From positions 6,426 to 38,425 of the forward strand of contig JACQNH010000044.1 of the NCBI GenBank assembly GCA_016203175.1: a stretch of DNA of 32,000 bases, in the 5' to 3' direction. Shown here piece after piece: positions 5,184-32,000 of the stretch (position 1 is the stretch's first letter; each line of letters opens with the position of its first letter). A program made the translations under genes and the position numbers. Origin of the DNA: Candidatus Woesearchaeota archaeon (GTDB lineage: Archaea > Nanobdellota > Nanobdellia > SCGC-AAA011-G17 > JACQNH01). The notes under the pieces were generated by a model, which was not told where the DNA came from, ran no database searches, and saw only the letters and a program-made list of their open reading frames with translations.

Positions 5184-5191
5184 AAATAAAT

Positions 5192-5265
5192 GCTCCTGTA
5201 GTATAGCCTGGATAGTATACAAGCTTGCGGAGCTTGGGACCGAGGTTCAAATCCTCGCAGGAGCG
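5192..5265 (+). tRNA. tRNA-Arg (anticodon GCG)
   Basis: I folded the cloverleaf by hand. The acceptor stem is GCUCCUG/CAGGAGC. The D stem is GUAU/GUAU with G10-U25 and U13-G22 wobbles and a GG in the loop. The anticodon stem is CAAGC/GCUUG with loop UU-GCG-GA. The T arm is CGAGG-UUCAAAU-CCUCG, and the discriminator is G. CCA is not encoded. Length is 74 nt. Confidence 0.85.
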
Positions 5266-5280
5266 AATCTAAATCCAATA

Positions 5281-15327: not shown

Positions 15328-16107
15328 TCACCTCTTTCTATATTGATAAGGATAAGCCCCAGTTTTTAATTTTGTAATTTCAAACTTATTTGTATCCCGA
15401 ATAAAATCATCAAGTAAACCATTAGTGTCCTTATCAAAAATAAAACCAAGATTACTAACTGCAACATTGTTATAATTAAAGAAAGTATAAGCTAAGATTG
15501 GAGCATAGAGTTTTTGACTTAAAACATAATCTGGTAAAATTCTCGCATTCAATCCTTGACGATCATAATAAATTTGCAAATCATTTTCATAAAAATTAAT
15601 AAAATCGCTAACAATAAAACCCCCTTTAGAACCAACAAAGTAACCAAATTCAACTCCAATATCATTTTTAAAAGATTTTTTCTGTATAAACTTATTTTGT
15701 AACTTATCAAATAATAAAAAAACTAAAACCTTTTTATCTTTAGAATTTTGAACATGAATTTCATAATCTTCTTTTAATAGTACTAATTTTCTTAAACCCA
15801 TAATTTTCATCTTGTCAGGTTCTTTAATTACACTTTCAAAAGCACTTACAACCTCATCAAAAGCCTTTTTAGCATTTGCAGCAGGATCACCATAAACTCT
15901 TTCAATACCGCTTCCTTTCAAACCAAAAACCTCTTTAAATTGACTAACAATATCGCTTGTTGTACCTTTTAATTCACCTCTAAACTTTGTAGCAGTTTCA
16001 CCTGTAGAAAAAGATAAATAACCAATCCCAACAATAAAAATTAATACTAAAGCTATTCCACCATAAACCAATTCCTCATGCTCAACAGCCCCTTTTTTTG
16101 TAAACAT
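15328..16107 (-). CDS. prepilin-like protein (class III signal peptide)
   Basis: Starting at the ATG at 16107, the N-terminus is MFTKKG/AVEHEELVYGGIALVLIFIVGIGYL. The tracked start at 16119 is a TTG and would overlap the preceding mini-ORF. Confidence 0.6.
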   Translation of the reverse strand: MFTKKGAVEHEELVYGGIALVLIFIVGIGYLSFSTGETATKFRGELKGTTSDIVSQFKEVFGLKGSGIERVYGDPAANAKKAFDEVVSAFESVIKEPDKMKIMGLRKLVLLKEDYEIHVQNSKDKKVLVFLLFDKLQNKFIQKKSFKNDIGVEFGYFVGSKGGFIVSDFINFYENDLQIYYDRQGLNARILPDYVLSQKLYAPILAYTFFNYNNVAVSNLGFIFDKDTNGLLDDFIRDTNKFEITKLKTGAYPYQYRKR

Positions 16108-16109
16108 TT

Positions 16110-16268
16110 TCAACCCCAAAAAGTTCCTTTAAATACTTCTTTAAAATAATTTATTACTCCTTCCCTAATTTCATTTGATATTAAAAAATATATAATAACA
16201 ATAATTAATATTATAACTAATGCAACAATATAATCCCAGTGTATCGCTCCTCTTTTAAATTTAAGCAC
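16110..16268 (-). CDS. mini prepilin-like protein (52 aa, GTG start); not in the ORF track
   Basis: Hand translation gives (GTG)M-LKFKRG/AIHWDYIVALVIILIIVIIYFLISNEIREGVINYFKEVFKGTFWG*. The GTG overlaps the upstream stop (GTGCTTAA). The stop TGA at 16112..16110 lies 2 nt before the next ATG. No ATG is available in this frame. Confidence 0.5.
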   Translation of the reverse strand: MLKFKRGAIHWDYIVALVIILIIVIIYFLISNEIREGVINYFKEVFKGTFWG

Positions 16269-17007
16269 TTTTAACCCCTCCAAAAGCTAATAAATTTCTC
16301 TGTGATATATAATCCTTTCCCCCGTCATAAGCATAATCATCTGTAAATATTAATCTATCAGGATCATCCATTTCAAAACCATCATAAAATCTTATATAAT
16401 ATCTACAACTAATTTTTTTACATTCTTCAGCATCCTTATCAAAAATAGATTTGCCTAAAAATCTGTTATCAATCCTTAGTTTATTCCCCCATAACCCAGT
16501 TCTTTCCACATACTCAACAAAACTTTCTTCTGTATAACTATCATCATTAAAAAGTTTGTTTAGAGGTATATTTAATGCATTCAAAAATTCTGTTACACTT
16601 ATCTCATCACTTTTGTCTAAATCAATATTAAAATTAAAACAAGTATTATAACTATTAACAGCAAAAAACCACTCCTTCAATAATTTTGGATGAGGAGTAT
16701 TTCCAAGCATTTCCCAACATCTCCCCATTAATTTAACAATATCCTTAATAACTTCATCTTTATCCCCCTTTGCTATTTGATCTTTACTTCCACAAGCCAA
16801 AGGCATTGTCGCAGGAAGAAATTTACCAAAAAAAGAAACCAAATTACCATTAATCCTCCCACTAATAGCACAAGCCAATTCCCCCCCATAAAGACTAAAT
16901 TGCTTCTGACCTAAATAAACAATAGAACCAGCCACTACTGCAAAAATAATTACTAATACTATACCCAACATAACATTTGGACCCCCATCTCCTTTTTTAA
17001 GCAACAT
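16261..17007 (-). CDS. prepilin-like protein (class III signal peptide)
   Basis: The N-terminus is MLLKKG/DGGPNVMLGIVLVIIFAVVAGSIVYL. It is the first pilin-like gene downstream of the platform gene. Confidence 0.6.
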   Translation of the reverse strand: MLLKKGDGGPNVMLGIVLVIIFAVVAGSIVYLGQKQFSLYGGELACAISGRINGNLVSFFGKFLPATMPLACGSKDQIAKGDKDEVIKDIVKLMGRCWEMLGNTPHPKLLKEWFFAVNSYNTCFNFNIDLDKSDEISVTEFLNALNIPLNKLFNDDSYTEESFVEYVERTGLWGNKLRIDNRFLGKSIFDKDAEECKKISCRYYIRFYDGFEMDDPDRLIFTDDYAYDGGKDYISQRNLLAFGGVKSA

Positions 17008-17092
17008 AACTTCTTAACCCCCATATAACAAGTAACATTATCACTACTAACAATAAACTCAAGATCAATATCACAATATATCCAGTTTCCAT
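16997..17092 (-). CDS. possible 31-aa single-pass membrane micro-ORF
   Basis: The sequence is METGYIVILILSLLLVVIMLLVIWGLRSYVA*. It fills the gap between the platform gene (stop at 17095) and the next pilin gene and overlaps that gene's ATG. It has no KKG motif. It is called only from position and hydrophobicity. Confidence 0.3.
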   Translation of the reverse strand: METGYIVILILSLLLVVIMLLVIWGLRSYVA

Positions 17093-17094
17093 TT

Positions 17095-19215
17095 TTACAC
17101 CCCTATATTTACCCTAGCAATTGTGCTTGCAAGCAAATTAAATATTAATGTTACAACACCCGCTATTATAAAATAAGTTAAAACTGCTCTATATAAATTT
17201 TTTCCAGTTACAAATAATTGACTTATCTTATCAACACCATTTTCAATTCCATTGCTTAAAATACTTAAAATTATAGTTACCTCAACAACATAAATCCCAA
17301 CAATTAATTGAAAATAAAAAGGGGGGATTACCTTCTCAATAGGAAATAAACCTAATAAAGTGCTTACATTAAAAACACCTCCAGCTTCTTGAGCTCCTAA
17401 AATAGCAGTAAATTGCTTAGCTAATAAACCAATTATTGTAGTTATCATAGTTCCTATACCTACAACAACACCACCAATAACAGGAGTCAAAAAACTAATC
17501 TGCCCTTTCATACTGCTTATAACATCTGCTAATAAATCTTTTAATCTTTCAACAACCAAATGAACCTGTCTAAAATAATTTGAAATACTAATTAAACTTT
17601 GAGCAACTATACTCCCTCCTTTTCTACTTGCTTCCAACATAACCTTCATACTCGATTCAATTAAAGGAGAATTAAAATACCTTATAGCTCCTCTTTCAGA
17701 ATTAAATATAGCCTCTTGCAAACTCATCCCAACCATTTCTAAATTATTACTTACCAAAGCAAAAAATTCACCACTAGCAGTTCCTCTTAAACTTTCAGCT
17801 ACTTTTCTAAAAGAAACCTCAACAGGCAATCCATCTCCAACCCTATTTCCTAATTGAAATAAACTCCCAGAAAATTCCACTTCTAATTTCTGTATATCTT
17901 CAAAAGTTTTAACCAATACGCTACTTCTTCTTTTGCAATAAGCACCATAACCAAAAGCCAAACCCAAAGGAATTAACAAACTAAACAATACAGCCCCGAT
18001 ACCAAAAGGACCAAATTCACCACCCTCGCCACTTCTAAAATCCAAAAAACTTCCAACATCACTTCCCCCTATTCTTAATGGAATATCAAACTCAGGTATA
18101 ACTAAATGTATTATTAAAGGTAAAAAACCAATTAAAACTAAAAGCAATCCTATAACAAAACCAATAGTTTTTGATTCAGATATAACCTTTGGATCCTCTA
18201 AATATTTTACCTTACCTCCAAAACCAGTAGGACGATTATTTAATAAATTAGTTCCATAAAAATAAACTATCACAGGTAATGCAACATCATAAAAAAAACC
18301 AAGGACATACCATTTAACACCCAAAAAAGAACCTAATAAAGGTAATATAATCAATCCTAAAATTGGTAATACTACACCCAACATATGTAAATTTGTAACA
18401 GGATTTTTTAAATTTTGGGCATAATGCATCATTCCTTCATAACTTCCCTCTAACATAACATTCAATCCTTTTTCTAAAACCTCAATCCTTTTCTTCTCAG
18501 TTCCTTCATACAAACTCCCAGCAATCAACTGCATGCTTTCAACAAATTCTATATTCTTATCTTTCCATTGTTCCAGATAATTATCAACAGACTCTTTAAT
18601 TGTACTATATTTACCTATCTCAACATCCCAATAAATCTTCCTTAAATCTAAAGCTAATGAACCACCAACATGATCACCAGCAAATTTAATAGCTCTTTCA
18701 AAATTAGAAGTATGTCTCATATACATAACAACATACAAAACACACAAAACCATTCTATCACTAACCTCCATTCTGAATTTATTAGCAATTCTTAAGGGAT
18801 ACTTTCCCATTGGTTTAATCATAAAAACACCAAGACCCATAATTAAAAATATTAAAAAATAAAAAGAAATCCCAGGTAAATTTCCACCTAATAAACCATA
18901 AAAACCAAATCTTAAAACAAACAAAAAAATTCCAATTAATATTACCATCACAGCAAAACCCAAACCAAAACTTGCAGCTTCTTTAGGATTAATTAATAAA
19001 TGAGAAAATTCAATAGCTTTTTCAACTTTTTTCTCGCTTTCCTCATCTAATTTAACTGGAAAATATCTAACGCAAAACTTACAGGCCTTTTCATAAAACG
19101 TTAAGCCTCTACCTAAAACCTCTTCTCTAAAAACTAAATAATCCTTACTAAATATGCCCTCTTCTTCATTCTTATCTAAATTATACTTTTCTAAAACTTT
19201 ACTTATTCCTTCCAC
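17095..19215 (-). CDS. type IV pilus assembly platform membrane protein (FlaJ/TadC/PilC-like, two T2SSF-type domains)
   Basis: This is a polytopic membrane protein immediately downstream of the ATPase. It has two cytoplasmic helical domains: an N-terminal one, and a second reading FSGSLFQLGNRVGDGLPVEVSFRKVAE...GMSLQEAIFNSERGAIRYFNSPLIESSMKVMLEASRKGG. They alternate with TM bundles as in T2SSF proteins. The start is GTG, with a GAGG SD 5 nt upstream. Confidence 0.7.
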   Translation of the reverse strand: MEGISKVLEKYNLDKNEEEGIFSKDYLVFREEVLGRGLTFYEKACKFCVRYFPVKLDEESEKKVEKAIEFSHLLINPKEAASFGLGFAVMVILIGIFLFVLRFGFYGLLGGNLPGISFYFLIFLIMGLGVFMIKPMGKYPLRIANKFRMEVSDRMVLCVLYVVMYMRHTSNFERAIKFAGDHVGGSLALDLRKIYWDVEIGKYSTIKESVDNYLEQWKDKNIEFVESMQLIAGSLYEGTEKKRIEVLEKGLNVMLEGSYEGMMHYAQNLKNPVTNLHMLGVVLPILGLIILPLLGSFLGVKWYVLGFFYDVALPVIVYFYGTNLLNNRPTGFGGKVKYLEDPKVISESKTIGFVIGLLLVLIGFLPLIIHLVIPEFDIPLRIGGSDVGSFLDFRSGEGGEFGPFGIGAVLFSLLIPLGLAFGYGAYCKRRSSVLVKTFEDIQKLEVEFSGSLFQLGNRVGDGLPVEVSFRKVAESLRGTASGEFFALVSNNLEMVGMSLQEAIFNSERGAIRYFNSPLIESSMKVMLEASRKGGSIVAQSLISISNYFRQVHLVVERLKDLLADVISSMKGQISFLTPVIGGVVVGIGTMITTIIGLLAKQFTAILGAQEAGGVFNVSTLLGLFPIEKVIPPFYFQLIVGIYVVEVTIILSILSNGIENGVDKISQLFVTGKNLYRAVLTYFIIAGVVTLIFNLLASTIARVNIGV

Positions 19216-19227
19216 TTTTCCTCTTTT

Positions 19228-22200
19228 TTATTCTTTTTCCAAAGCTGTCCTCTCACCTTGAATACCTTTTTTTAACCATTCAACCCATTCATTATAAATT
19301 TTTTTACTATCTAAAACACCAGTCATACTTTTTACATTTTCAGAAACAATATGGAACATATCATTAGCTTGAACAATAAAATCAGCCTCTAAAATATCAG
19401 GTCTGTTTAACTTTAGACTATAATCCAATAAAGTTTGTTTTATTTTAGCTCTTAATAAAATATTATCCCAAACAGCAGCCCAATTTCCAGCCCAGTCTTT
19501 AACATTCCCAGCTATAGATTTCAAAATTTCACTATCTCCATTTTTTAAATCATCTGTAATCTCTAATTGATCTGTCTTAGGATTATATCTCATTAAATCT
19601 ACAAAACCACCCTCTTTCAAAGGATCTTCTTCCCAATGTTTTCTTACCTCAGTAATTTGTAAAACCCTTCTAAAATAGCTCAAACCATCGGGGCTTCTAA
19701 CAGGATTTGATAGCACAATTATATCTGTAGCTTTAAAACTTGTTCTTGGAACACCTAAATCATTTACAACTCTATCAAATACACCATAAGGACTTTCGCC
19801 ATGAATTGTACCTGCAACGACATTAGCTAACGCACCTATGCGCATGGACTCAAAAAGTGACTTTGCTTCAACACTTCTTATTTCACCTACAATTAAACTA
19901 CTATCCCCCATTCTTAAACTCGTTCTTATCCCCTCATCAGCGCCAACTTCAGTTCCACCAGTAGCTAAAGCACTTCTTACTTTCATCTGCTGAACATTAT
20001 AACCTAATCTTCTATATGCTTCTAAAGGAATCTCTAAAGTATCTTCAATCGAAACTATTCTGTATTTCCTCATAATCTCAGCAATAGCACTTCCCAAAAG
20101 ACTAGTATTATGAGCAATAATCCCATTAGCAACAAAATTATGTGTCCTATCAACAGTTAAATCATAAACATAATCATCTATTTTATTAACAACTTCAATA
20201 GATACAATTTCATCCCAAAAAATATCAGAATGTGCTAATTGCTCAGTCTCACAAATTAAATCAAAAACTTCTTTCGCAACTACCTTATCATAAATATTTA
20301 AAATAGTTTTAACAATAGATTGAAATACTTCTAAAGTAGATACACCTTTTCCCATAAAGAAATTTGTTACAGTTGTAATAGAAACATCATCAGATAAAAA
20401 TTCAGAATTAGAAATATTAAGCTCATTCCTCAAATAGGAAATGAGTATACCAACATCAAGATAGCTTATTAAAAATTTCATAGAGTTTAGTTTACTAAGT
20501 AAATCAACAGCTTCTTTAAAATTTGATAAAAGCTTACTCCTTAATTCAACTAGATAACTTTCAAGTAATATTTGTTTTTGCACAGGTATATTGATGTTAT
20601 CTGGACCATAAGCATAATATTTCAAAGTAGTTTCAGGAATACTAGTAGCTTTAGAAATATCAACGTAAGAAACTAAACCTGCATTAACGAAAAGCGGTAC
20701 ATTTCTCATGGTCAAGTCTAAATTCTTTAAAAACTCCAGCTCAACAAAACGTTTATTAAAAAAATTAATAATAGAAGAAGTTCGAGCTAAATTGCTAATA
20801 TTACCAATTCTAAAATTTTTTAATATTTTTCTAACTCCTCTTTCGGAAAAACCTAAATTAGCAGCTAAAGTACCATAAGATAAACCAAAAAGCTCTTTCA
20901 ATCTAGCAATATCTTTAAAATACAAGCTACCATCAAAATTAACAAAATTTCTTAAATTATTTACTTTTTCATTTAAAGAAAGAAGTTTTATATATCTTTC
21001 TTTATAAAAACATATAATCTTTGAAAACCAATTTCTTGTTACTCTATATTGATCATTTTCATAAGACCAATAATCCTTTCCAATATCTTTCCTTAAATCC
21101 AATGGTGAAACTCTAAGTTTCTTCCTTAATAATCTAAAAATTTCATTTCCTTGGGGGATTGTATCAACATTTGTATTTTCTATATATTTTTTTGTTACAA
21201 GCGAATTTAAAACTTCTTTTTTAAAAGGATGCGAAAAACCAATATTATTAAAGAAGTCTACAACACAACGGCCATAAATATAATTTCTATAATAAGGCAC
21301 ACCATTTATTATTTTTAAACAATTAAAAGTAGTTATACCAAATCGCAATAAAGCAAATCTTAGGTACTCAATCATTGATTTACTTGCCGATACAAGTTCT
21401 ATCATTCTCTTATCTTTACTAACAGAACCATCTGTATCAAAATAACCTCTTAAAAAAGCAGCTAAAACCTCATTCTTTGATTTGAGTATAACCTGAGGAA
21501 TAATAATTTTATTTGCCTTATTTCCTAGTGGAATCTCAAAAACCTCACTCAAAAGACTAGAAAGGATTCTAGAGGATACTTGAACAACAGTAGTAGTCCT
21601 AGATTTAAAAACCCTATAGGGCACATTGAACATTTTTATTAATCTAATATACTTCTCTCTAAGTTCTACACAGCTATTATGAAATTCTAATTTTGTTTTA
21701 TCAATATGACCATCCCCTAAAATTAAACCAACAAATTCAGCAATGTCAGCATCAACCAATTTAGGAAAGTAAACAATTGAAGAATTAGTTTTTCCCTTTA
21801 AAATATAATAATCATCATTTTCTCTAATAAGATAAGGATGCCCTTTTAAATCAATCGAAATTTCTTTACCAATAACTTCAATTTTTCTAGGGGAAGCAAT
21901 TAAATCCTTAATTTTAAGTTCATCAGCTCTCTTATTTTTTAAACCCTTATAATAAACAAAGTAAGGATGCTCACAAGTAGTAATTATCTCCTTTCCGCTC
22001 TTTGTTCTTATTTTAATAAGTTTGTCAGGTGAACTTCTTTTCCAAACATCTGTAATCTTTTGATTAGATATCTGAAATCCATCTAAAGACTTAACACTTA
22101 AATCAGAGATAGGCTCATAAATATAACCATCATCAATCTGTTTTTTCTCTTTTCCAACTAAATCCTTAATCTTCTTTATACCACCATCAGCAAACTGTAT

Positions 22201-23613
22201 TAAAGTATCCCCACCAACACACTTTCCTGAACTTCTTGTACCAGCAAAAATTAAGGACCTGTTTCCATCGATTACAAAACTTAACAAACCAGCAGCCATA
22301 CTATTAATCATTTTGTTCTTCATAAATAAAGGAAAAGTCCATGGCTTATCCCTATGTCTCCTGAATGCATAAGCCAAACCAAAAGGATTTAATGGACTAG
22401 TTATAATTGCAACCCTCGCTCTTGATTTAGGCAAAATTAATTCCGTATCTAAAATAGGATTTGCCTCATCTAACGCCCTTCCACTTAAAATTCTAAATTT
22501 AGTTGCCCACCCTTGAACATCATCATTACTAGGATAAATATTTGTAAAACAATGACCATAATCTTGATGAACAACATAAATAGGATTCTCACCAACAGGA
22601 GCATTAATTGTTATATCTTGTATCTTCTCATCTTCTAACAAAACTTCAATCAAACCAAAACCAATAGTATAACGAACTAAAATCGAAGATAAATCATTTA
22701 ATTTTTCAATACTAATATCCATTTCTCTTTGATCAGCCAATTCAGTTAATAAATCTCGAGCAATATTAAAAAAAGTATTCCTAACCCTTTCAGGCTCTAA
22801 AAAGTCTTCTTCTCTAGGTTGATGTTCACGAATTATTCCCCTAGCAGTCTCCAATAAACTATATTCATCCTCACTTAGTTTAAATTCAGGGGGATTTAAT
22901 TGATACAAATATTTTATGTCTCCTTTAATCCTGTAAACCCCAACATCACTTTGATTAAAACTATAAACATCTAATTGCTCTGCATCTAAAGGAGGCTGTA
23001 CTCTTAATCTAGAAAGCATAAAATCAGGAGTAATAGCAGCCCTAAACACTAATCGATAAATACTTCTATCACCAATCTCAAAACCATCTAATTCATCCCT
23101 TGTAGCATTTATCAAAGCAGTATTATTTAACAATCCATACAAATAATCTAAAAGATCAAAAAAAGATTTCTCATAGGGGTTCTCAGCTTTTTTTAGTCTT
23201 ATTCTACTTTCCCTCCTCAATCTTTTTATTTCAACAAAAGCACTTATAGGATCACTTTTTAATAAACCATAAACAATAGTCTGTAAATTTGTTAATCTTT
23301 CACCCAAATAAGAAGAGCAGTTAGGGTCCAAAACCAAACTCCAAATACCTCTTTGTTTTACTAAGGCATTATAAACATTAGAGATTTCAACTAATAACTG
23401 GGTTTGATGATAATTGTAAATATAATTCTTATTTAAATAAAAAATTATTCTCTTAACTCCTGGAAATTCAATTAATCTTTCAATGGTTTTTAACATACAG
23501 ACAGGATCATCTTCTAAACTAGGGCTATGACCTGCTATCAAACAATCTATCTTTAAAATCTCTTCCTGCCCTTCCCTAACAATCTGAAACTCTCTTTTTT
23601 CAACTTCAACCAT
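19228..23613 (-). CDS. type II/IV secretion-family ATPase (FlaI/PilB/GspE-like pilus assembly ATPase), intein-containing precursor
   Basis: Walker A is split as AGTRSSGK-[intein]-TSLLGS. Downstream motifs are RIVSIEDTLEI, the Asp-box/Walker B SSLIVGEIRSVEA and the His-box VAGTIHGESP. The exteins are 464 + 292 aa. Confidence 0.85.
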   Translation of the reverse strand: MVEVEKREFQIVREGQEEILKIDCLIAGHSPSLEDDPVCMLKTIERLIEFPGVKRIIFYLNKNYIYNYHQTQLLVEISNVYNALVKQRGIWSLVLDPNCSSYLGERLTNLQTIVYGLLKSDPISAFVEIKRLRRESRIRLKKAENPYEKSFFDLLDYLYGLLNNTALINATRDELDGFEIGDRSIYRLVFRAAITPDFMLSRLRVQPPLDAEQLDVYSFNQSDVGVYRIKGDIKYLYQLNPPEFKLSEDEYSLLETARGIIREHQPREEDFLEPERVRNTFFNIARDLLTELADQREMDISIEKLNDLSSILVRYTIGFGLIEVLLEDEKIQDITINAPVGENPIYVVHQDYGHCFTNIYPSNDDVQGWATKFRILSGRALDEANPILDTELILPKSRARVAIITSPLNPFGLAYAFRRHRDKPWTFPLFMKNKMINSMAAGLLSFVIDGNRSLIFAGTRSSGKCVGGDTLIQFADGGIKKIKDLVGKEKKQIDDGYIYEPISDLSVKSLDGFQISNQKITDVWKRSSPDKLIKIRTKSGKEIITTCEHPYFVYYKGLKNKRADELKIKDLIASPRKIEVIGKEISIDLKGHPYLIRENDDYYILKGKTNSSIVYFPKLVDADIAEFVGLILGDGHIDKTKLEFHNSCVELREKYIRLIKMFNVPYRVFKSRTTTVVQVSSRILSSLLSEVFEIPLGNKANKIIIPQVILKSKNEVLAAFLRGYFDTDGSVSKDKRMIELVSASKSMIEYLRFALLRFGITTFNCLKIINGVPYYRNYIYGRCVVDFFNNIGFSHPFKKEVLNSLVTKKYIENTNVDTIPQGNEIFRLLRKKLRVSPLDLRKDIGKDYWSYENDQYRVTRNWFSKIICFYKERYIKLLSLNEKVNNLRNFVNFDGSLYFKDIARLKELFGLSYGTLAANLGFSERGVRKILKNFRIGNISNLARTSSIINFFNKRFVELEFLKNLDLTMRNVPLFVNAGLVSYVDISKATSIPETTLKYYAYGPDNINIPVQKQILLESYLVELRSKLLSNFKEAVDLLSKLNSMKFLISYLDVGILISYLRNELNISNSEFLSDDVSITTVTNFFMGKGVSTLEVFQSIVKTILNIYDKVVAKEVFDLICETEQLAHSDIFWDEIVSIEVVNKIDDYVYDLTVDRTHNFVANGIIAHNTSLLGSAIAEIMRKYRIVSIEDTLEIPLEAYRRLGYNVQQMKVRSALATGGTEVGADEGIRTSLRMGDSSLIVGEIRSVEAKSLFESMRIGALANVVAGTIHGESPYGVFDRVVNDLGVPRTSFKATDIIVLSNPVRSPDGLSYFRRVLQITEVRKHWEEDPLKEGGFVDLMRYNPKTDQLEITDDLKNGDSEILKSIAGNVKDWAGNWAAVWDNILLRAKIKQTLLDYSLKLNRPDILEADFIVQANDMFHIVSENVKSMTGVLDSKKIYNEWVEWLKKGIQGERTALEKE
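20107..22221 (-). mobile_element. large (705-aa) LAGLIDADG intein in the P-loop of the pilus ATPase (aa 465-1169)
   Basis: Block A is CVGGDTLIQFADGG (Cys1) and block B is IITTCEHPYF (TxxH). The LAGLIDADG motifs are FVGLILGDGH and FLRGYFDTDGS. The C-terminal blocks are YVYDLTVDRTHNFVANGIIAHN, followed by Thr+1. Boundary codons were checked: TGT 22221..22219 and AAT 20109..20107. Excision restores GTRSSGKT. Confidence 0.85.
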
Positions 23614-25402: not shown

Positions 25403-25918
25403 ATGCTAGAAAGTAAATTAAAAAATATGAAAGACGAATTCAATGAAGGCATATTATTACTAAAAAACGAAAGAAACCAAGAGGCTCTAAAATACTTTAA
25501 TTCAAAATTAGCAACTGATGATCCTTTGGTTTATTATGGAATTGCAACAGCAAAATTTAAAATAAAACAACATACTTTAACTATAGAAGAGCTATATGAA
25601 ATTATTGTTTTGTATAAAAAAGCACTAGAAAAGGACCAAAAATTTGCAGACGCTTATTTAATGTGTGGGTTAACCTATGGACAATTGGCTTCTACATTAA
25701 CAATAGCGTATAAAAGAGACCCACTTAATAAAGGTGATTCTCAAATAAATAATATTAAAAATATTCTACAACAATCAAAATGGTTTATAGAAAAAGCTAT
25801 AGAAATTAATCCTGATTTCGCCAAAAATTGCGAGCATATCCTCAATAAATTCGAAAGAAGATTTGAAGGTATTGATTCTTTAAAGAAGTTTTATGAAAAT
25901 AGATCTCAATTTAACTAA
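25403..25918 (+). CDS. TPR-like helical repeat protein
   Basis: The 171-aa protein is all-helical in character. It has TPR-like segments (EALKYFNSKLATDDPLVYYGIATA; YKKALEKDQKFADAYLMCGLTYGQL; IEKAIEINPDFAKN). It begins directly after the phosphoesterase stop. Confidence 0.5.
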   Translation: MLESKLKNMKDEFNEGILLLKNERNQEALKYFNSKLATDDPLVYYGIATAKFKIKQHTLTIEELYEIIVLYKKALEKDQKFADAYLMCGLTYGQLASTLTIAYKRDPLNKGDSQINNIKNILQQSKWFIEKAIEINPDFAKNCEHILNKFERRFEGIDSLKKFYENRSQFN

Positions 25919-28900
25919 CGTGTTAAAGGAATATTTCCTGACTTATCAAAAGGACCCTCTTCTCTAACAACTCCAACTTGAATTTTCTTCACACCGAGGG
26001 ATTTCCCTAAATCAATCATTTCCCCTTCAAGTTTATGTATTGGATCAATAACTTTTAGATATCGTGCATTTATTAAGCCAGTAGGATAATCCTTCTGAAA
26101 TTTTTTTAAATCTTTTTCTGCACTAGAGTAAGTACTTATTTTGAATGCATCTTCAATTTTTTTTGCTATACTATTATAGTTTTGTTCATCCATAACAATA
26201 TTTATATCAATATCTTTATCAGATCCAAAAACAAATCTTTCACCTGTTTTAGAAGAAACACCTATAACAGAACTACCAACAACCATTACTTTTTTTGGAT
26301 CATATGTAAAAGGAAGTCTATCAAGAACATCAAATACACCATTAGATAACTGAGTAAACATATCTTTATTAAAACCAAAAGGTAAACCAGTCTCCTTTAC
26401 TTTTAGATGTAATGGGGGATTACAAGATTTTGCAATAGTCTTTCCAACATTTGCTTGTGTTGTTAAAAGATAATCTTCTACAAATTCAAAAACTTCTGAA
26501 GGCATATTAGGAAATCTCGGAATAACTTGCTCAATAACAAATTCTGTTGGATCAAAGTCCATAAGTCGATAAAAGTTCTCATCTGCAACAGGTATCTCCT
26601 CGGGTGTTGGTGCAGGAATACCTTTTATTATATCTTCAAGCGTTTTTTTAGTAGCATCTGTTACTTCTCTAACTCTAACTGGTTCTAGGAATTTAGCATG
26701 TTCAAAATCATAACCTAAAACTTTTCCTTCAGGTGCTATCCCAAGATTATGGAGTAACAATTTCCCACTTTGTGTTAGCCCTATACCAAAATCATCATCA
26801 CCAATTAAATATCGTAAAACCTTAATTTTATTAGCAGCTGTTTTTGTTATTTGAAAGGGATCTCCCCCTTCAACTGCTAATTGTAATGAACCCTCAACAT
26901 TTCCCAAACCTGAAATTTCTTCTAGTTCACTTGGCTTTATACTTGCACCTTCTATTTGTTGAGGTGTTATTTTATAACTATCAGTTTCTGGAACTGCACC
27001 TAATTCTAATTCCTCACTTAATTTGTATACAATTTCTTCAATCTTCCCACTATTCCCTGATCTAAAAAATGCCTTTACACCATTCTTAAATATAACCCGA
27101 TAAGCTTTACTATAAGCAGAAATAGGACCAATTATAACAATAGTTTTTTCTATAGAATCAATTGGCATATCTTTCAAAGAAACTATATCAATTTTTGGAG
27201 CTGGTAACGCTAATCTTTCCGGCCTAAGTAGTTTACAAGTGCCTTTTTCAAGACCCACCAAATCTTTATTATTTATACAAGATTTTATTTCTAAAGCAAA
27301 ATTTTCAGGAACTCCTTCATCAACGAGTAATTGCTCTAAAGGTTTTGGTTGACTATTAAGTGCATTTCTTATAAAAGATCCTCCCAAAGTTGAAGAACCT
27401 ACAGCCATTGCTGTATCTTGAGCAGAAGCCCCAGCTTTTGCAGTACTAGCCACTAAACCTACAAGATTTTCAACAGGAATTTCTACAGGCTTAAGTAATA
27501 CAAGACCCCCTTCGCCTTCTGAAATCCTAAACATTACAAACTGACCCTTACTAATAGGTATAGGTACTAGAGTTTCAACTGCTCCTTCAACTGGAACCCC
27601 CAACAATTTTGCAAGCCAATTTACTTTTACTCTATAAGGAGTTGCTGTATAAATTTGCCCTTCAATTGGAACCTCTATTTGTTTTTCAGGAATCTCTACA
27701 GCTATTCTTTTTAAATAAGTTGTAATAATCTTCTGTCCATAGGGAGACTGTATAAAAGATTCTCCAGCAATCTTTCTTAAAGATTGTGCACCAGCTACTG
27801 CAAATAAAGCTGTGGCCCCCATATCTGCACATTTTTGACTAACTTGGAAATATTTTTCACATTCTGGTCTAAGTTCAGGTTCAATAAGATGAATCTTAGG
27901 ACACCATTCTGCATCCTTATCCAATCTAAATTCTTCAAATGCTTTAACACATTCAGGAGCCACTTCATTAAAATGATACAAAACTGCTGGAAGAGTAATT
28001 GCAGTTAAAGCTACACCTACCTTTCCTACAAGTGGAGCAATTACAGGGAAAAATCCACTAATAAAACCAACTGCCATAGGTGCAACAAGAGTCCCACCAA
28101 CTAAAAGGTACTTTGCTGTTTGCCATTCAGGATGTTCAGGAGGCATACAGAACAGATCTCTATTTTTGCTTGAAAAAAAGCTGACATCCCCCCCATAAAG
28201 TTCAGCCCCTGTTGTCATATCATCATCCCAAGGAGTAACCCCGTTCTCATAATCAACAGAATAACCTTCTTTGAAATTTTTATTACAATTAATATCCAAA
28301 AGATCAGCAGTACCACAACTCAATGCTTCTTGCTCAGGATAAGGACTTAAAGGAGCAAATGGATGCACATACTTTGCACTTATCTTTATATAATCCTCGC
28401 GAGTTGCACCTGTAAGACTTAAGGCTTTTACATACTTCTCTGGATCCAATAATTTTATTCTTTCTTTCACCGGCAATGATTGTGGTGGACTAGATCCCAA
28501 TACAATAGCATGATAATCGGGAATACCGTTATTATTGAAATCCTGCTCATCATCATCACCCTCATAATTATCACAGTCAGAAAATAATTTAGATTCTGCA
28601 AAAGGAAAACATTCTTTATTTTCTAAGCAATAATCATAATTAACACATAATTGTGGGATTTTATCTCTTTCTTTTATTGCAGCAAATCCCCCCTCAGTTT
28701 TTCCAAGATGTTTAATCATATCACAATAACCTTTATGACTTCCTAAGAATCTATCATCATCCGCATCCCAACCTTTATTATAACATTCAGGATCATCACC
28801 ATCAGCAAGGGTTACAAGAAGAGTTTTACCCAAGTGTTCAGTTTCAGTACATGTTTCCGATTCAGAATATTTTTTTATTATTTCAAAACCGGTGCGTAAG

Positions 28901-31900
28901 GTCGAATCTTCAAAAGGACTAAATATTTTAAATATATTATTCAAATCTTCTTTCCCATCATTATCAACACCATCTTTACATTTATCTTTCTTAACACAAT
29001 TTGTTTTCCAACCAGTCTCTTTTTTTAGAACAGTTTTTCTACAAGGGTTATCCTGTTCATTACCCTCTTTATCAATATATTTTTTTGAAATAAACTTATT
29101 AAAATCAAGTTCACCATATCTTGAATCAATTACTTTATCTTCTTTCTCAGGAAGACAATTAAATGCAACATCTAATTTAGACTCTACCCCTGATCCAGTT
29201 ATAAAATTAAGCTCACATCTAGCATCTTTATTCGTTTTTAAGGGAAATACATTTGGTATTATAGTCTCTTTTGCCCCACCAGGTGAAAATCTACATTCAT
29301 TTATACCACTAGATTCTTCAAGGTGGATTACACATTGTTCATCCTCTTCACACGCTGTTCCATCAGATAAACCATTCCAAACCCCGGTGCATTTATTATT
29401 TGTTCCACATATCCTTGGTCTATCATCCCCTCCTAAGACAGGATAATTACAAAAAGAACATGCGGCATACAATGTAGACTTACAAATACCAACTCTAGAC
29501 ACCTTTCTATCCACACATTTATCATCCCCAAACAAAGCCCACAAATTAAGATCATTATTACAACTATTTCCAGTTTTAATCCCCCATAAATATTCATTAG
29601 TTTCACTATTTTGACAACATACTACAGCAGAACAAAATGATTCATCATTAGATGGATCATCATTACAATCCAAAGGACCACAATAACCTCCTTCTGGTGA
29701 AAAGCCATCATTATCTTTATCAGAACAAACAGAACAACCAGTATAATCCCGAATACCAGAAAAATCAATAGTAAATTCTCCTTCAGCATAATCTTGTCTA
29801 ATTTTATTAAGACCTACACTAAATTTTTTATCAGCATAATATAAATATAAATTTGGAATCTGAATCAATTCACCTTGAAGAGAGAATTTAATTTTTGTTT
29901 TATCACGAACATTACTTATGCTTCTTGTATCACTTGGCAACTGACCTTCAGAACTGTCACTAATAGGCGGATCAATAAAAAACTTAGTAATCCTAAGCTT
30001 TCCTTTACCACCTATGCTTGTTCTTGAATCTTGACCTCCGCTTATAAATGCAGGACAAGAAATAACTTTACCTATAATAGGGCAACTATACACATTAGTG
30101 TCTGTACTACATTGAGTTTCAACTTCTGTTTTAAGCCCAATTAGGTTCTGTTTATCTTGATTATCCACCTTTCCATCATTATTTAAATCTAATAATTGTG
30201 AAAAATCATCTCCACGTAAATATTTTTCAAAAATTAATAAATCACGTCCCCCAACCTTTCCATCACTATCAAGATCTCCTTTTATACCCTCTTTAATTTT
30301 ACAAGGCAACTCTTCACCTGGATGTTCTTGTAACCAAGTTTCCATACCAAAAAAAGGTAAACAAGATACTTCACTAATGGTTTTTATCTTTACAACACTC
30401 AATTTATACCCACTTTCAGCATTACCTTCAATAGAGTAAGCTAGTTTTGTTCCAGAAGGTAAATCTTTAAAAAATAATTCAGCAATTTTTTTTATAGGAT
30501 CTTTAAAATTATCACAACTTATTTTAAAAGAATTTGGTAATTCATTAAAATTATTTTTATCAGACCAAACATCTACAGCATTTTGTTCTATAAATATCTT
30601 TGAAATAGTTTTAGTTCCGCCTTCCGCAATGTTTACTGTAGATATAACTTTTTGACAATCCCCAAAAGGTAAAGTATAGGAATGGTCTTGACCCGAGGTT
30701 ACATAAATACTTTTTGGAGTAACCCCTATATTTTGCCCATCTAAAATAATAGTAACCCCGCTTGGTTGGGAACTAAAATCTAATTTTCCTTTTCCTTCAA
30801 ATAAATTATATTGAAGATTAGTTTGTTGTATTTCAGATATACTTACAGAGCTAAATATTTTTATTAAATCCTCTTTTTTAACAGTTATTTTATAATTTCC
30901 AGGAATAAGCATAAAAGGTCTTGTTCGTGGTGAAGTTTCTTCATTAATAAACACTTGTGCATCTAACGGATTTCCACTAATCTCTAAATTTGTTACAAGT
31001 GTAGTTTGTAAATTTGTTGTTTGTCCACTATTAATTATTGCAGACTGAGAAAAACTTACATAACCAGCTTTTGAAATTTTTATATTATAATTCCCAATAG
31101 GGAGAGTAATTGAAATAATCCCATTAGAGTCAGTTTTTCCTCGCGGTGTTGTTTCTTGATTAATAAAAATATTAGCATCAGGATTAGAAGTGATTTTTAA
31201 AACCCCTGGTGCTGTTTGTTGTAAAGTTGCACTAATAGGGGTTGTTTCACCACCATAAGCATATTGAGTTATTGTCTGAGAATTATAACCACTTTTACTT
31301 AAAACAACTGTATGATAAGTATTTCCACTTAAATCAGAAACTGTTAATGGACTTATCCCCCTACTTACACCATCGACAGTTACACTTGCTCCTAAAGGAT
31401 TTGAAGTAATACTTATTGTAGAAGAAAGAGGGCTTCCAAAATTTGCAGTAAATGTAGTTGTTTCACCACCATAAGCATATTGCGTAACTTGTTGATTACT
31501 ATAACCTCTAATAGTAAAATACACAGTATATTGTTGATTTCCAGATAAAGAAACTGAAAAAGGAGTGCAACATCCAGCAGTAGCTCCACTTACACTCGCA
31601 CCGACAGGTATAGTTTGAAGATTTAAAGTTGCAACAGAAGGATTTCCTAATAATCGAGTAACTGTGGCCCTTCCCCCTGATACAACATTTTGATTGGCTA
31701 TCGAATCTACATAACCTCTTTTAATAAGTTTAACAGAATGAGTACCTGCTGAAACTGAAATATCAACCTGTCCACTAGTACTTGTTTGTCCCCCCCTAAC
31801 ATTGTCAATATAAATATCCGCAACGCAACGATTATCTCCAATATCAGCACATCTAGCATCTATTCTAAAAACCCCAGTACCAATCTGAAGTCCAGTAATT

Positions 31901-32000
31901 AAATTAGGTTTATCAAGATTTTTTTCTTTTAATTCCCTCACTGCAGAACCACTAACAACACCTAATCCAGAACCCCCACTTGAAATTGTAAAACCATTCA
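25915..32000 (-). CDS. giant multidomain surface/membrane protein (more than 2,027 aa, 5' end outside the window)
   Basis: The frame stays open upstream of the tracked GTG at 31941 to the window edge (..NGFTISSGGSGLGVVSGSAVRELKEK..). The domains read by eye are:
- PEGA/CarboxypepD_reg-like repeats (aa ~40-450), including a 72-aa tandem unit.
- A dockerin-like pair (aa 555-602).
- Cys/Asp-rich repeats (aa ~735-1275).
- A hydrophobic stretch (aa 1277-1324).
- A roughly 680-aa C-terminal region. Confidence 0.8.
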   Translation of the reverse strand, partial: NGFTISSGGSGLGVVSGSAVRELKEKNLDKPNLITGLQIGTGVFRIDARCADIGDNRCVADIYIDNVRGGQTSTSGQVDISVSAGTHSVKLIKRGYVDSIANQNVVSGGRATVTRLLGNPSVATLNLQTIPVGASVSGATAGCCTPFSVSLSGNQQYTVYFTIRGYSNQQVTQYAYGGETTTFTANFGSPLSSTISITSNPLGASVTVDGVSRGISPLTVSDLSGNTYHTVVLSKSGYNSQTITQYAYGGETTPISATLQQTAPGVLKITSNPDANIFINQETTPRGKTDSNGIISITLPIGNYNIKISKAGYVSFSQSAIINSGQTTNLQTTLVTNLEISGNPLDAQVFINEETSPRTRPFMLIPGNYKITVKKEDLIKIFSSVSISEIQQTNLQYNLFEGKGKLDFSSQPSGVTIILDGQNIGVTPKSIYVTSGQDHSYTLPFGDCQKVISTVNIAEGGTKTISKIFIEQNAVDVWSDKNNFNELPNSFKISCDNFKDPIKKIAELFFKDLPSGTKLAYSIEGNAESGYKLSVVKIKTISEVSCLPFFGMETWLQEHPGEELPCKIKEGIKGDLDSDGKVGGRDLLIFEKYLRGDDFSQLLDLNNDGKVDNQDKQNLIGLKTEVETQCSTDTNVYSCPIIGKVISCPAFISGGQDSRTSIGGKGKLRITKFFIDPPISDSSEGQLPSDTRSISNVRDKTKIKFSLQGELIQIPNLYLYYADKKFSVGLNKIRQDYAEGEFTIDFSGIRDYTGCSVCSDKDNDGFSPEGGYCGPLDCNDDPSNDESFCSAVVCCQNSETNEYLWGIKTGNSCNNDLNLWALFGDDKCVDRKVSRVGICKSTLYAACSFCNYPVLGGDDRPRICGTNNKCTGVWNGLSDGTACEEDEQCVIHLEESSGINECRFSPGGAKETIIPNVFPLKTNKDARCELNFITGSGVESKLDVAFNCLPEKEDKVIDSRYGELDFNKFISKKYIDKEGNEQDNPCRKTVLKKETGWKTNCVKKDKCKDGVDNDGKEDLNNIFKIFSPFEDSTLRTGFEIIKKYSESETCTETEHLGKTLLVTLADGDDPECYNKGWDADDDRFLGSHKGYCDMIKHLGKTEGGFAAIKERDKIPQLCVNYDYCLENKECFPFAESKLFSDCDNYEGDDDEQDFNNNGIPDYHAIVLGSSPPQSLPVKERIKLLDPEKYVKALSLTGATREDYIKISAKYVHPFAPLSPYPEQEALSCGTADLLDINCNKNFKEGYSVDYENGVTPWDDDMTTGAELYGGDVSFFSSKNRDLFCMPPEHPEWQTAKYLLVGGTLVAPMAVGFISGFFPVIAPLVGKVGVALTAITLPAVLYHFNEVAPECVKAFEEFRLDKDAEWCPKIHLIEPELRPECEKYFQVSQKCADMGATALFAVAGAQSLRKIAGESFIQSPYGQKIITTYLKRIAVEIPEKQIEVPIEGQIYTATPYRVKVNWLAKLLGVPVEGAVETLVPIPISKGQFVMFRISEGEGGLVLLKPVEIPVENLVGLVASTAKAGASAQDTAMAVGSSTLGGSFIRNALNSQPKPLEQLLVDEGVPENFALEIKSCINNKDLVGLEKGTCKLLRPERLALPAPKIDIVSLKDMPIDSIEKTIVIIGPISAYSKAYRVIFKNGVKAFFRSGNSGKIEEIVYKLSEELELGAVPETDSYKITPQQIEGASIKPSELEEISGLGNVEGSLQLAVEGGDPFQITKTAANKIKVLRYLIGDDDFGIGLTQSGKLLLHNLGIAPEGKVLGYDFEHAKFLEPVRVREVTDATKKTLEDIIKGIPAPTPEEIPVADENFYRLMDFDPTEFVIEQVIPRFPNMPSEVFEFVEDYLLTTQANVGKTIAKSCNPPLHLKVKETGLPFGFNKDMFTQLSNGVFDVLDRLPFTYDPKKVMVVGSSVIGVSSKTGERFVFGSDKDIDINIVMDEQNYNSIAKKIEDAFKISTYSSAEKDLKKFQKDYPTGLINARYLKVIDPIHKLEGEMIDLGKSLGVKKIQVGVVREEGPFDKSGNIPLTR

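Follow-up and report, generated by a model that had tools for sequence, protein, structure and literature searches.

A P-loop intein in a DPANN secretion ATPase with a predicted tandem array of four helix-turn-helix domains

The closest described systems are archaeal inteins with accessory domains (ACDs), namely TliVMA and PhoVMA (7qss, 7qst), PI-TkoII (2cw7) and PI-PfuI (1dq3) (Beyer & Iwai 2022, PMC8966425). In TliVMA and PI-TkoII, the ACD is positioned between the endonuclease and HINT's C-terminal part, is helix-turn-helix (HTH)-like and alters the choice of the cleavage site; that of TliVMA decreased specificity rather than increasing it (PMC8966425). Known ACDs are single small domains within inteins of 360-540 aa. 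Phage homing endonucleases belonging to the GIY-YIG, HNH and EDxHD types (I-TevI, I-HmuI, I-Bth0305I) have NUMOD-type DNA-binding modules, while LAGLIDADG enzymes are described as relying on a compact fold instead of module strings (Stoddard 2014, PMC3943268).

Inteins are also on record for the host superfamily considered here: the catalogue of Novikova et al. 2016 contains 21 inteins in archaeal VirB11/COG0630 and five in CpaF, and notes that P-loop insertions, a recognised hot spot, are common (PMC4760082). The first-pass annotation was wrong to suppose that no intein had been described in an archaeal pilus or secretion ATPase. One of the related proteins in our own set (P0007) is labelled COG0630. 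The literature already covers inteins of archaeal COG0630/CpaF ATPases, insertion sites in P-loops and HTH-like ACDs. In the catalogue passages reached by a term search there is no mention of multi-HTH accessory arrays (PMC4760082), and we found no description of a fourfold HTH array in an intein in the literature searched. The intein described here has the domain order of the ACD inteins (HINT-N, LAGLIDADG endonuclease, ACD, HINT-C), but in place of one small domain there are four predicted HTH units (~315 aa), for a total of 705 aa.

The intein interrupts an open reading frame within a 32,000-nt stretch of DNA (the window; Table 1). Judged by its sequence, the host protein is a T2SSE/GspE/FlaI-family ATPase of a DPANN archaeon: the spliced extein matches Pfam T2SSE with 51.5 bits (cut-off 24.9), its best match among solved structures is afGspE 2oap (E 4.3e-26), and the C-extein bears both an Asp box (IEDTLE) and a Walker B motif (LIVGEIR). 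The ATG at 23613 is backed by orthologues of 750-765 aa, which align over 97-100% of the 756-aa extein after splicing. A 'pilus' role is suggested by the family to which the protein belongs and by the order of the genes. The gene call in the database (P0001, 1164 aa) begins at an internal Met of the precursor reading frame.

Table 1 Positions of the ATPase gene, its intein and the intein domains within the window
Feature	Position (nt)	Strand	Description
Whole precursor ORF	19228..23613	-	1461 aa, T2SSE/GspE/FlaI-family secretion ATPase with one intein
N-extein	22222..23613	-	aa 1-464, C-terminal ...AGTRSSGK opens Walker A
Intein HINT domain, N-terminal part	21772..22221	-	intein aa 1-~150; Cys1, block B T82-x-x-H85
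LAGLIDADG homing endonuclease core	21187..21750	-	intein aa 158-345
Motif FVGLILGDGH	21706-21735	-	intein aa 163-172, predicted catalytic Asp170
Motif FLRGYFDTDGS	21424-21456	-	intein aa 256-266, predicted catalytic Asp264
Predicted HTH unit 1	20977..21168	-	intein aa 352-415; VDxIP anchor, near-invariant helix 3 GKDYW(S/A)YEN
Predicted HTH unit 2	20737..20940	-	intein aa 428-495; not in 539-aa allele P0096
Predicted HTH unit 3	20506..20724	-	intein aa 500-572; not in 630-aa allele P0003, nor in P0004, P0096
Predicted HTH unit 4	20257..20484	-	intein aa 580-655; in all alleles; immediately upstream of C-terminal splicing strands
Intein HINT domain, C-terminal part	20107..20241	-	intein aa 661-705; blocks F/G, ...THNFVANGIIAHN, then Thr+1
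C-extein	19228..20106	-	292 aa + stop; starts TSLLGSAIAE, completes Walker A

The intein consists of 705 aa (protein aa 465-1169, nt 22221..20107 of the minus strand) with the flanks ...IFAGTRSSGK / CVGGD...IIAHN / TSLLGS. It splits the Walker A motif as GTRSSGK/T, exactly at the coordinates first annotated, and has the canonical splicing residues of class 1 (Cys1, T82xxH85, His704-Asn705, Thr+1); in alignment A1, H85 is invariant and T82 nearly so. Splicing would regenerate GTRSSGKT, which aligns with GETASGKT of afGspE 2oap; the closest orthologue without an intein (P0099) has exactly this sequence in its uninterrupted loop. Pfam Intein_splicing covers intein residues 8-705 (110.9 bits against a cut-off of 35.8, E 6.6e-32). 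In the AF2 model, the N-terminal HINT part has a beta-rich fold (pLDDT 74-93); the C-terminal part (660-705) aligns with PhoCDC21-1 and also with DnaB mini-inteins. Solved inteins among the sequence matches are PhoCDC21-1, TliVMA and PI-PkoII, and the top Foldseek match of the intein model is TliVMA (7qss, E 1.2e-21, TMt 0.72), which likewise resides in a P-loop. Together with the match to Pfam LAGLIDADG_3 (E 1.1e-21, two stretches), these comparisons uphold the intein call and place it far beyond chance. With 705 residues between the Lys and the Thr of GxxxxGKT, the 1461-aa precursor would be unable to bind ATP; the HINT domain would join the exteins to a 756-aa active ATPase and release the free intein.

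Both LAGLIDADG motifs quoted in the first-pass annotation are present (Table 1). Foldseek matches of the endonuclease core include TliVMA, PI-PfuI, PI-TkoII and I-DmoI, and the acidic residues of the xDG motifs are retained in all alleles examined. The free intein may act as a homing endonuclease against intein-less alleles.

Intein residues 346-660 lie outside the endonuclease fold and before the C-terminal HINT strands; this extra region is all-helical, and its ~315 aa agree well with the original estimate of ~325 aa on top of a core of ~380 aa. AF2 modelled intein residues 336-661 with good confidence (pLDDT 86.7, pTM 0.75) as four repeats of a1-a2-turn-a3-long a4, hence as four separate helical units and not as an extension of the endonuclease fold. 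All four HTH-like strings that had been pointed out are found (intein 371-381, 441-467, 517-536 and 597-622) and each maps to helix 2/helix 3 within one repeat, consistent with the proposed three to four HTH units. None of the window's own four units reaches a Pfam HTH cut-off, and their assignment is based on orthologues and on profile-profile comparison. As reference, we used a profile of accessory domains from related inteins with Pfam HTH_3 matches of E 1e-5 to 5e-12; hhalign aligned the profiles of all four units in register with it, with probabilities of 95.4% for unit 1 (E 1.7e-8, 57 columns), 68% for unit 2 (E 4.7e-5), 82% for unit 3 (E 1e-5) and 85% for unit 4 (E 6.2e-6). An HMM of the same accessory domains matches unit 1 of P0003, P0004, P0006, P0091 and P0096, and in orthologues HTH_3 exceeds its cut-off of 23 bits for unit 3 (23.7 bits in P0097) and unit 4 (30 bits in P0003). 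Unit 2 aligns with unit 3 (91%) and unit 4 (77%) and has Pfam matches below threshold to HTH_23, Sigma70_r4_2 and HTH_31; the profile of unit 3 matches HTH regulators of the PDB (E 0.004-0.06), PezA and Stl among them. The Pfam families with most matching members in each unit are HTH families, although each is matched by only 1-3 of 7-11 members. A few non-HTH Pfam families also match members of the unit families. Foldseek searches with the whole 326-aa module returned nothing significant from the PDB (best E 0.49) or BFVD (best E 0.06); among the weak matches from the viral library, CI and Cro/C1 repressors are over-represented. By sequence and model, the extra region is confirmed as a predicted tandem array of four HTH domains.

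Inteins of the same lineage (E 1e-27 to 1e-49 against the present intein) but with one HTH_3 domain are found in DPANN and other archaea, within other T2SSE ATPases (P0014, P0015, P0017, P0019, P0022), SRP54 (P0009) and MCM (P0008, P0010). Common to them and the present intein are the VDxIP anchor, the HTH_3 domain after it and then an ...SDI(F/Y)WD block F, but they are ~415-515 aa long and interrupt either different host genes or T2SSE ATPases at a different site (after profile position 238, not in Walker A). Unit 1 is homologous to their single domain and would be the ancestral accessory domain, and the array as a whole appears to be an enlarged form of the DNA-binding accessory domain of other homing inteins. 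The best explanation, and in our view a probable one, is a mobile P-loop intein whose accessory DNA-binding domain has grown from a single unit into a tandem of four Cro/C1 (XRE, HTH_3)-like HTH domains. The array most likely serves as an extended DNA-targeting module for homing: of the two functions initially considered, an expanded DNA-recognition module fits best, because unit 1 is homologous to the HTH_3 domain of related inteins and such domains are documented to modulate DNA cleavage (PMC8966425). The other, a captured regulatory domain, is unsupported: when 1.84 billion representatives were searched exhaustively, the extra region turned up only in alleles of the same intein, with no free-standing relative.

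In the proposed mechanism, the LAGLIDADG core would cleave at the GGAAAG/ACTAGT junction region and the four HTH units would dock in successive major grooves of the flanking DNA, resulting in a longer footprint, higher affinity and perhaps tolerance of synonymous target drift. Units 1 and 4, which are never missing and show the highest conservation, would accordingly make the core contacts. Conservation of units 2 and 3 is weak and some alleles lack them; they may therefore contribute little and be dispensable add-ons. The direction of the effect of the array is uncertain, given the lowered specificity caused by the TliVMA domain (PMC8966425).

The position of unit 4 next to the C-terminal splicing strands, and the strict dependence of a host protein with a P-loop intein on splicing, could also point to conditional splicing, documented in other inteins (DnaB, RadA): the array would respond to DNA, to a partner protein or to a ligand and, by gating splicing, control the ATPase and pilus assembly. 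This is very improbable, as the units contain neither a sensor-type domain nor a cysteine pair nor a metal site and look like DNA-binding HTH domains, and related inteins with one or no unit have the same splicing blocks.

Unlike in the known single-ACD inteins, the number of units varies at one and the same site, with two (539 aa), three (630 aa) or four (693-711 aa). The four-unit alleles come from eight GTDB species representatives, all DPANN, at 29-49% identity; the array is kept even at 29%, and a Candidatus Nanohalobium MAG also has it. The distribution among orthologues is sporadic: ~113 of the 120 best-scoring ones have no intein, including the three closest (76-78% identity). The intein is, on these comparisons, probably a mobile class-1 LAGLIDADG element in the P-loop of a DPANN T2SSE-family ATPase. 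At the putative homing site, the closest intein-free allele and the reconstituted site of the window are identical in only 36 of 60 nt, which makes current homing between these lineages doubtful.

That natural alleles of 630 and 539 aa look otherwise intact without unit 3 or units 2 and 3 would suit a largely neutral expansion, with units that arose by duplication or insertion and are at most a structural spacer with no need for DNA binding. They would persist because any frameshift or stop inside the intein would destroy the host ATPase, and the host gene enforces an open frame whatever the function. The extra region is also less conserved (0.36) than the HINT and endonuclease parts (0.47-0.61) and has the lowest GC content of the gene (25.8%). 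However, conservation is uneven and peaks in the predicted recognition helices: within every unit, predicted helix 3 ranks first among the segments (jointly so in unit 4), with mean pairwise identities of 0.77, 0.38, 0.50 and 0.62 for units 1-4, compared to 0.18-0.44 for the a4 helices; helices 2 and 3 of unit 4 range at 0.62-0.64. Moreover, the array has a confidently predicted ordered fold, and neutral sequence would be expected to be deleted far more often than the persistence of four-unit alleles of near-constant length (693-711 aa) across such divergence indicates. We therefore consider neutrality unlikely.

Retention of the array across deep divergence could, alternatively, reflect domestication or dual use, with the free spliced intein acting as a transcription factor or nucleoid protein that for example regulates the pilus locus. 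The model would be WhiA (DUF199), a free-standing bacterial transcription factor with a LAGLIDADG fold followed by one C-terminal HTH; Pfam LAGLIDADG_WhiA matches at the borderline (24.0 bits, cut-off 23.2) and the WhiA structures 3hyi and 8dy9_I are among the Foldseek matches (E ~1e-5). WhiA is degenerate and catalytically dead, whereas the present protein keeps both catalytic Asp in all alleles examined, lies within a HINT domain and carries four predicted HTHs, and its array was not found free-standing among the 1.84 billion representatives. Most orthologous genomes have no intein, so any host function would be dispensable, and no candidate operator was identified. Domestication is therefore unlikely.

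As a homing module, the array resembles the NUMOD endonucleases, in which small DNA-binding modules, HTH domains among them, are strung together and tied to the nuclease to reach targets of up to ~30 bp (PMC3943268). The likeness is one of strategy; those enzymes are free-standing and non-LAGLIDADG. The present element would unite the compact LAGLIDADG fold with a modular DNA-binding string within an intein. Among its sequence matches is also the Mja KlbA mini-intein 2jmz (MJ0781; E 5.8e-9), whose host we take to be a member of the same ATPase family. KlbA is a class-2 (Ala1) mini-intein of 168 aa without endonuclease (PMC7765530), unlike the class-1 intein here.

The intein was found at exactly the coordinates proposed in the first-pass annotation when the ORF was read again (20107-22221). 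Cys1 directly follows ...GTRSSGK of the N-extein and is kept in all alleles; block B reads T82-C-E-H85, with H85 invariant and T82 nearly so in our alignment (A1), and the C-terminus is ...IIAHN (His704-Asn705), followed by Thr+1. A single match to the Pfam Intein_splicing profile PF14890 runs from intein position 8 to 705 (profile 1-155; 110.9 bits at a curated cut-off of 35.8 bits, E 6.6e-32), and the solved inteins matched by sequence are PhoCDC21-1, the V-ATPase inteins 7qss and 7qsu, PI-PkoII, DnaB mini-inteins and MJ0781/KlbA. The AlphaFold2 model of the whole intein (mean pLDDT 84.2) is structurally closest to the TliVMA intein (Foldseek: E 1.2e-21, TMt 0.72), with PhoVMA, PI-PfuI, PI-TkoII and PI-SceI as the next matches. 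Cys1, TxxH, His-Asn with Thr+1, a profile match at both ends and a restored host motif classify the element as a class-1 HINT intein, and it is predicted to be active in splicing.

Features of the intein-bearing ATPase gene and of other genes in the window (nucleotide positions are window coordinates; a3, predicted recognition helix)
Feature	Position	Strand	Sequence	Basis or a3 identity across alleles
Precursor ORF, 1461 aa	19228..23613	-		translation
Intein, 705 aa	20107..22221 (protein aa 465-1169)	-	junctions IFAGTRSSGK / CVGGDTLIQ and NGIIAHN / TSLLGS	
Predicted unit U1	intein aa 352-415		a3 DYWSYENDQY	0.77
Predicted unit U2	intein aa 428-495		a3 ERGVRKILKN	0.38
Predicted unit U3	intein aa 500-572		a3 ETTLKYYAY	0.50
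Predicted unit U4	intein aa 580-655		a3 ITTVTNFFM	0.62
Putative homing/cleavage site, reconstituted intein-less allele			...GGTACAAGAAGTTCAGGAAAG / ACTAGTCTTTTGGGAAGT...	predicted
Predicted target, reconstituted site across the junction			ATTTTTGCTGGTACAAGAAGTTCAGGAAAG / ACTAGTCTTTTGGGAAGTGCTATTGCTGAG	predicted
Genes next to the ATPase gene	15328..19215	-		
RadA recombinase gene, 874 aa	5281..7905	-		
RadA intein, ~520 aa	about 5806..7386	-	junctions IDTE(S) / S...ILHN / TFRPERI	
FAD/NAD-binding oxidoreductase-like gene, 903 aa	400..3111	-		
Oxidoreductase intein, ~540 aa	about 709..2346	-	...ILLHN / THGGI	
2008-aa ORF	25915..31941	-		
RPA-like OB-fold protein	8575..9585	-		
tRNA-Arg(GCG)	5191..5266	+		

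The spliced extein has 756 aa and regains the Walker A motif GTRSSGKT: its junction reads GTRSSGKTSLLG, is identical in the closest intein-free orthologue (P0099) and aligns with the Walker A motif of 2oap. It matches Pfam T2SSE (PF00437) with 51.5 bits (cut-off 24.9), Walker A, Asp box and Walker B are all present, and the closest solved relatives are Archaeoglobus GspE (2oap, E 4e-26), CpaF and FlaI; MJ0781/KlbA is presumably a member of the same ATPase family. By sequence, the host thus classifies as a secretion ATPase of the T2SSE family (GspE/PilB/FlaI/CpaF/VirB11). It was not filed as FlaI, because its score of 125.5 bits is far under the equivalog threshold of 550 bits (NF058587), and it belongs to a DPANN orthogroup of its own (~755 aa). 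Relatives number thousands; the best 120 are mostly ~750-770 aa long, come from Woesearchaeota, Nanoarchaeota and Pacearchaeota MAGs and carry the database name 'type II/IV secretion system ATPase subunit'. These orthologues span 97-100% of the spliced extein, indicating that the start of the 1461-aa ORF is correct. The database gene call of the locus (P0001, 1164 aa) begins at an internal Met (aa 298) and omits window positions 22722..23613.

Gene order around the ATPase is conserved: the ATPase gene is followed by a gene for a polytopic membrane protein of ~700 aa and by genes for proteins of ~250-265 aa, in the window as well as at two orthologous loci (L001, 8272-12195; L003, 11446-15123). 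The ~250-265-aa proteins have an N-terminal KKG and a hydrophobic helix and look pilin-like by eye. The membrane protein in the window has 706 aa and is accompanied by two proteins of ~250 aa; searches of Pfam, NCBIfam and PDB, made to type these neighbours as platform protein and pilins, returned no match for any of them. The host had at first been called a pilus ATPase: the ATPase family and the conserved gene order agree with this name, whereas the neighbours match no family, so that 'pilus' is a reasonable but unproven label drawn from family and gene order. The ATPase and its neighbours may form a so far uncharacterised pilus or secretion module of DPANN archaea.

Both LAGLIDADG motifs of the intein keep their terminal acidic residue (GLILGD170G and GYFDTD264G), and the intein matches Pfam LAGLIDADG_3 in two stretches (E 1.1e-21, 77.3 bits). 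The AlphaFold2 secondary structure of residues 158-345 is a pair of alpha-beta-beta-alpha-beta-beta-alpha folds, for which Foldseek finds I-DmoI (TMt ~0.7) and TliVMA (0.72). Motifs and model classify this domain as a monomeric two-motif LAGLIDADG homing endonuclease with predicted site-specific cleavage. A LAGLIDADG_WhiA match (24.0 bits) sits under the much stronger LAGLIDADG_3 match; WhiA is catalytically degenerate and free-standing with a single C-terminal HTH, while the intein domain retains the catalytic Asp and lies inside HINT, and WhiA identity was rejected.

The endonuclease ends at about intein position 345 and block F starts at about position 661, leaving a gap of ~315 aa (346-660), compared with ~75 aa in TliVMA. 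This is the position of the accessory domain (ACD) slot sensu Beyer & Iwai 2022 (PMC8966425). Modelled alone from 12 aligned sequences, the extra region is entirely helical (pLDDT 86.7, pTM 0.75) and repeats one pattern four times: helix a1 (9-14 aa), a2 (8 aa), a turn, a3 (9-10 aa) and a long a4. The possibility raised in the first-pass annotation, that the extra region is just a normal extension of the alpha/beta endonuclease fold, is contradicted by this all-helical, fourfold and separate module, and each of the four HTH-like strings picked out there lands on a2-a3 of one of the units U1-U4. A nested second intein or an inserted gene was rejected as the origin of the extra length, as there is only the single HINT match and there are no additional splicing blocks; an assembly chimera was rejected too, as the same architecture is seen in independent MAGs. 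DNA-level repeats within 20107-22221 are limited to short AT-rich chance matches, thus the units are not recent duplications. The array (20242..21186) has the lowest GC content of the gene (25.8%, compared with 29.0% for HINT-N and endonuclease and 31-34% for the exteins).

None of the window's own units reaches the gathering threshold of Pfam HTH_3 (23 bits), the whole intein scores 12.3 bits and only U2 has sub-threshold HTH matches; the case for HTH domains therefore rests on related inteins, profile comparison, orthologues and structure searches. Related inteins of other T2SSE ATPases, SRP54 and MCM have a single HTH_3 domain at the same position (E 1e-5 to 5e-12) that opens with a (V/I)DxIP anchor, common to the intein of the window, and is followed directly by ...SDIYWD of block F. 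When a profile of these accessory domains (HTH_3-ACD) was aligned pairwise with the units by hhalign, all from small alignments, all four units matched in register: U1 with 95.4% (E 1.7e-8, 57 columns) and U4, U3 and U2 with 85%, 82% and 68%; between units, the values were 91% for U2-U3 and 77% for U2-U4, likewise from small alignments. Earlier unit comparisons with 7-11 sequences had given a weak signal that became stronger once the GTDB alleles were added. An HMM of the HTH_3 accessory domains independently matches U1 in five family members, and two orthologue units are above the HTH_3 threshold: U4 of the shorter same-site allele P0003 (30 bits) and U3 of P0097 (23.7 bits). The most widely matched Pfam families of each unit are HTH families, although each matches no more than 1-3 of 7-11 scanned members and some families other than HTH turn up too. 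Foldseek searches of the module against viral models (BFVD) gave weak local matches, mostly to CI repressors and Cro/C1/XRE proteins (TMt 0.62-0.73, rmsd 2.0-2.7 over ~60 residues), with no significance for the whole module; against PDB nothing was significant for the 326-aa module, the top matches being long helical proteins with rmsd >20. In searches of PDB sequences the U3 profile had marginal matches to HTH regulators and the profiles of U1, U2 and U4 returned noise only. We conclude from these comparisons and the model that the module probably consists of four divergent HTH domains of the Cro/C1 type in tandem, with U1 as the ancestral accessory domain.

A word-indexed search with the extra region alone returned no matches, which is a sensitivity artefact; the whole-intein search recovered the family. 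Exhaustive searching of 1.84 billion representatives without a profile recovered the extra region from only 10 proteins, all of them alleles of the same intein in the same ATPase. Among 185,579 GTDB species genomes, eight have the array, all DPANN: Nanoarchaeota and Woesearchaeota MAGs and one Candidatus Nanohalobium (the taxonomy is that of these related MAG records rather than of the window). The GTDB alleles cover the full query with 29-49% identity, with inteins of 693-711 aa. Shorter alleles exist at the same site: P0003 (630 aa) and the truncated P0004 are without U3, and P0096 (539 aa) is without U2 and U3. Alleles with four units are found in both main subclades of the intein and those with three are nested within one, and loss of U3 in the three-unit subclade is the simplest reading.

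Averaged over pairs of alleles, HINT and endonuclease reach an identity of 0.47-0.61 and the array one of 0.36. In every unit, conservation peaks at the predicted recognition helix a3 (in U4 equal with a2), compared with 0.18-0.44 for the a4 helices and 0.31 for the helix linking U1 and U2; U1 and U4 are present in every allele and are the most constrained units. Such a conservation peak at a3 is the pattern expected of DNA-reading heads and argues against a purely neutral spacer. By its HTH similarity, the array may have a part in recognising DNA or in choosing the cleavage site.

Inteins are absent from about 113 of the 120 best orthologues, among them the three closest (exteins 76-78% identical), and the exteins of intein-bearing hosts are only 45-65% identical to that of the window; the catalytic xDG residues are kept in all alleles examined. 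Homing elements are classically recognised by just this combination of patchy occurrence and intact nuclease motifs. At the P-loop site, the closest intein-free allele shares only 36 of 60 nucleotides with the reconstituted site of the window, with 10/10 identical residues on the N-extein side and 7/10 on the C-extein side, so the nucleotide changes are mostly synonymous. Ongoing exchange between the two lineages is not evident, and the 36/60 value is uninformative on current homing.

P-loop inteins, inteins of archaeal secretion ATPases, the LAGLIDADG endonuclease and an HTH-like accessory domain are all established. Entries of the intein catalogue include insertions into P-loops in general, as well as inteins of archaeal VirB11/COG0630 (21) and CpaF (5) ATPases (PMC4760082), and the KlbA mini-intein of MJ0781 is the textbook class-2 example (PMC7765530). 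Accessory domains in the ACD slot are structurally diverse, HTH-like in TliVMA and PI-TkoII, and alter the choice of cleavage site, with lowered specificity in TliVMA; their acquisition was proposed to help inteins spread, and modular extension of meganuclease target recognition was attempted by engineering (PMC8966425). Phage HNH and GIY-YIG enzymes tether a string of DNA-binding modules (NUMODs) to the nuclease, while LAGLIDADG enzymes are described as users of a compact fold instead (PMC3943268); the intein of the window appears to join both strategies. Our literature search for a multi-HTH accessory array or for unit-number polymorphism found no description of either. New, as far as this search goes, are the enlargement of the accessory domain to four predicted tandem HTH domains and natural two-, three- and four-unit alleles at one site. 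These alleles are ready-made deletion variants; should the array bind DNA, it would be a natural experiment on how the target recognition of meganucleases can be extended by modules.

In the mechanism we propose, the precursor would be inactive because Walker A is split, and HINT splicing would yield the ATPase and a free endonuclease of ~82 kDa; the LAGLIDADG core would cut intein-less alleles and the HTH array would lengthen the DNA contacts along the flank. It is a long shot, in our estimate, that the array serves as a targeting device that is modular by nature and can be reconfigured, with units gained, lost and diverging to re-aim or broaden the nuclease, or that the free intein has a second role in sequence-specific regulation of the pilus locus of its host. 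A targeting device could allow the intein lineage to persist in fast-drifting, AT-rich DPANN genomes, and either reading, if true, would make this the first LAGLIDADG intein whose DNA-binding arm has several domains in the manner of NUMODs, and a natural template from which programmable meganucleases could be made.

The finding is one more sign that DPANN genomes are rich in inteins. Two further genes of the window, encoding RadA recombinase and a FAD/NAD-binding oxidoreductase-like protein, have LAGLIDADG inteins, and three inteins in 32 kb mark this genome as intein-rich. The RadA gene matches Pfam Intein_splicing (2.1e-18) and Rad51 (8e-83); a search of its intein with the HTH_3-ACD HMM gave no HTH accessory domain. 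The ATPase orthogroup has at least three intein sites: Walker A, Asp box and Walker B (P0122, P0152, P0174, P0206, P0215, P0180; L005, L010, L011). Inteins at the Asp box (~515 aa) have the junctions ...VED / S...AHN / TLELP and those at Walker B ...GEIRS / S...LHN / TEA; three loci (L005, L010 of Candidatus Nanohalobium and L011) have two inteins in one ATPase gene, with open frames of 1945-1966 aa.

Elsewhere in the window, three PEGA domains, one CarboxypepD_reg-like domain and one dockerin type I domain were recognised in the 2008-aa ORF, which probably encodes a surface or adhesion protein. The RPA-like OB-fold protein (Rep_fac-A_C, DUF2240) and the tRNA-Arg(GCG), both encoded near the RadA gene, look ordinary.
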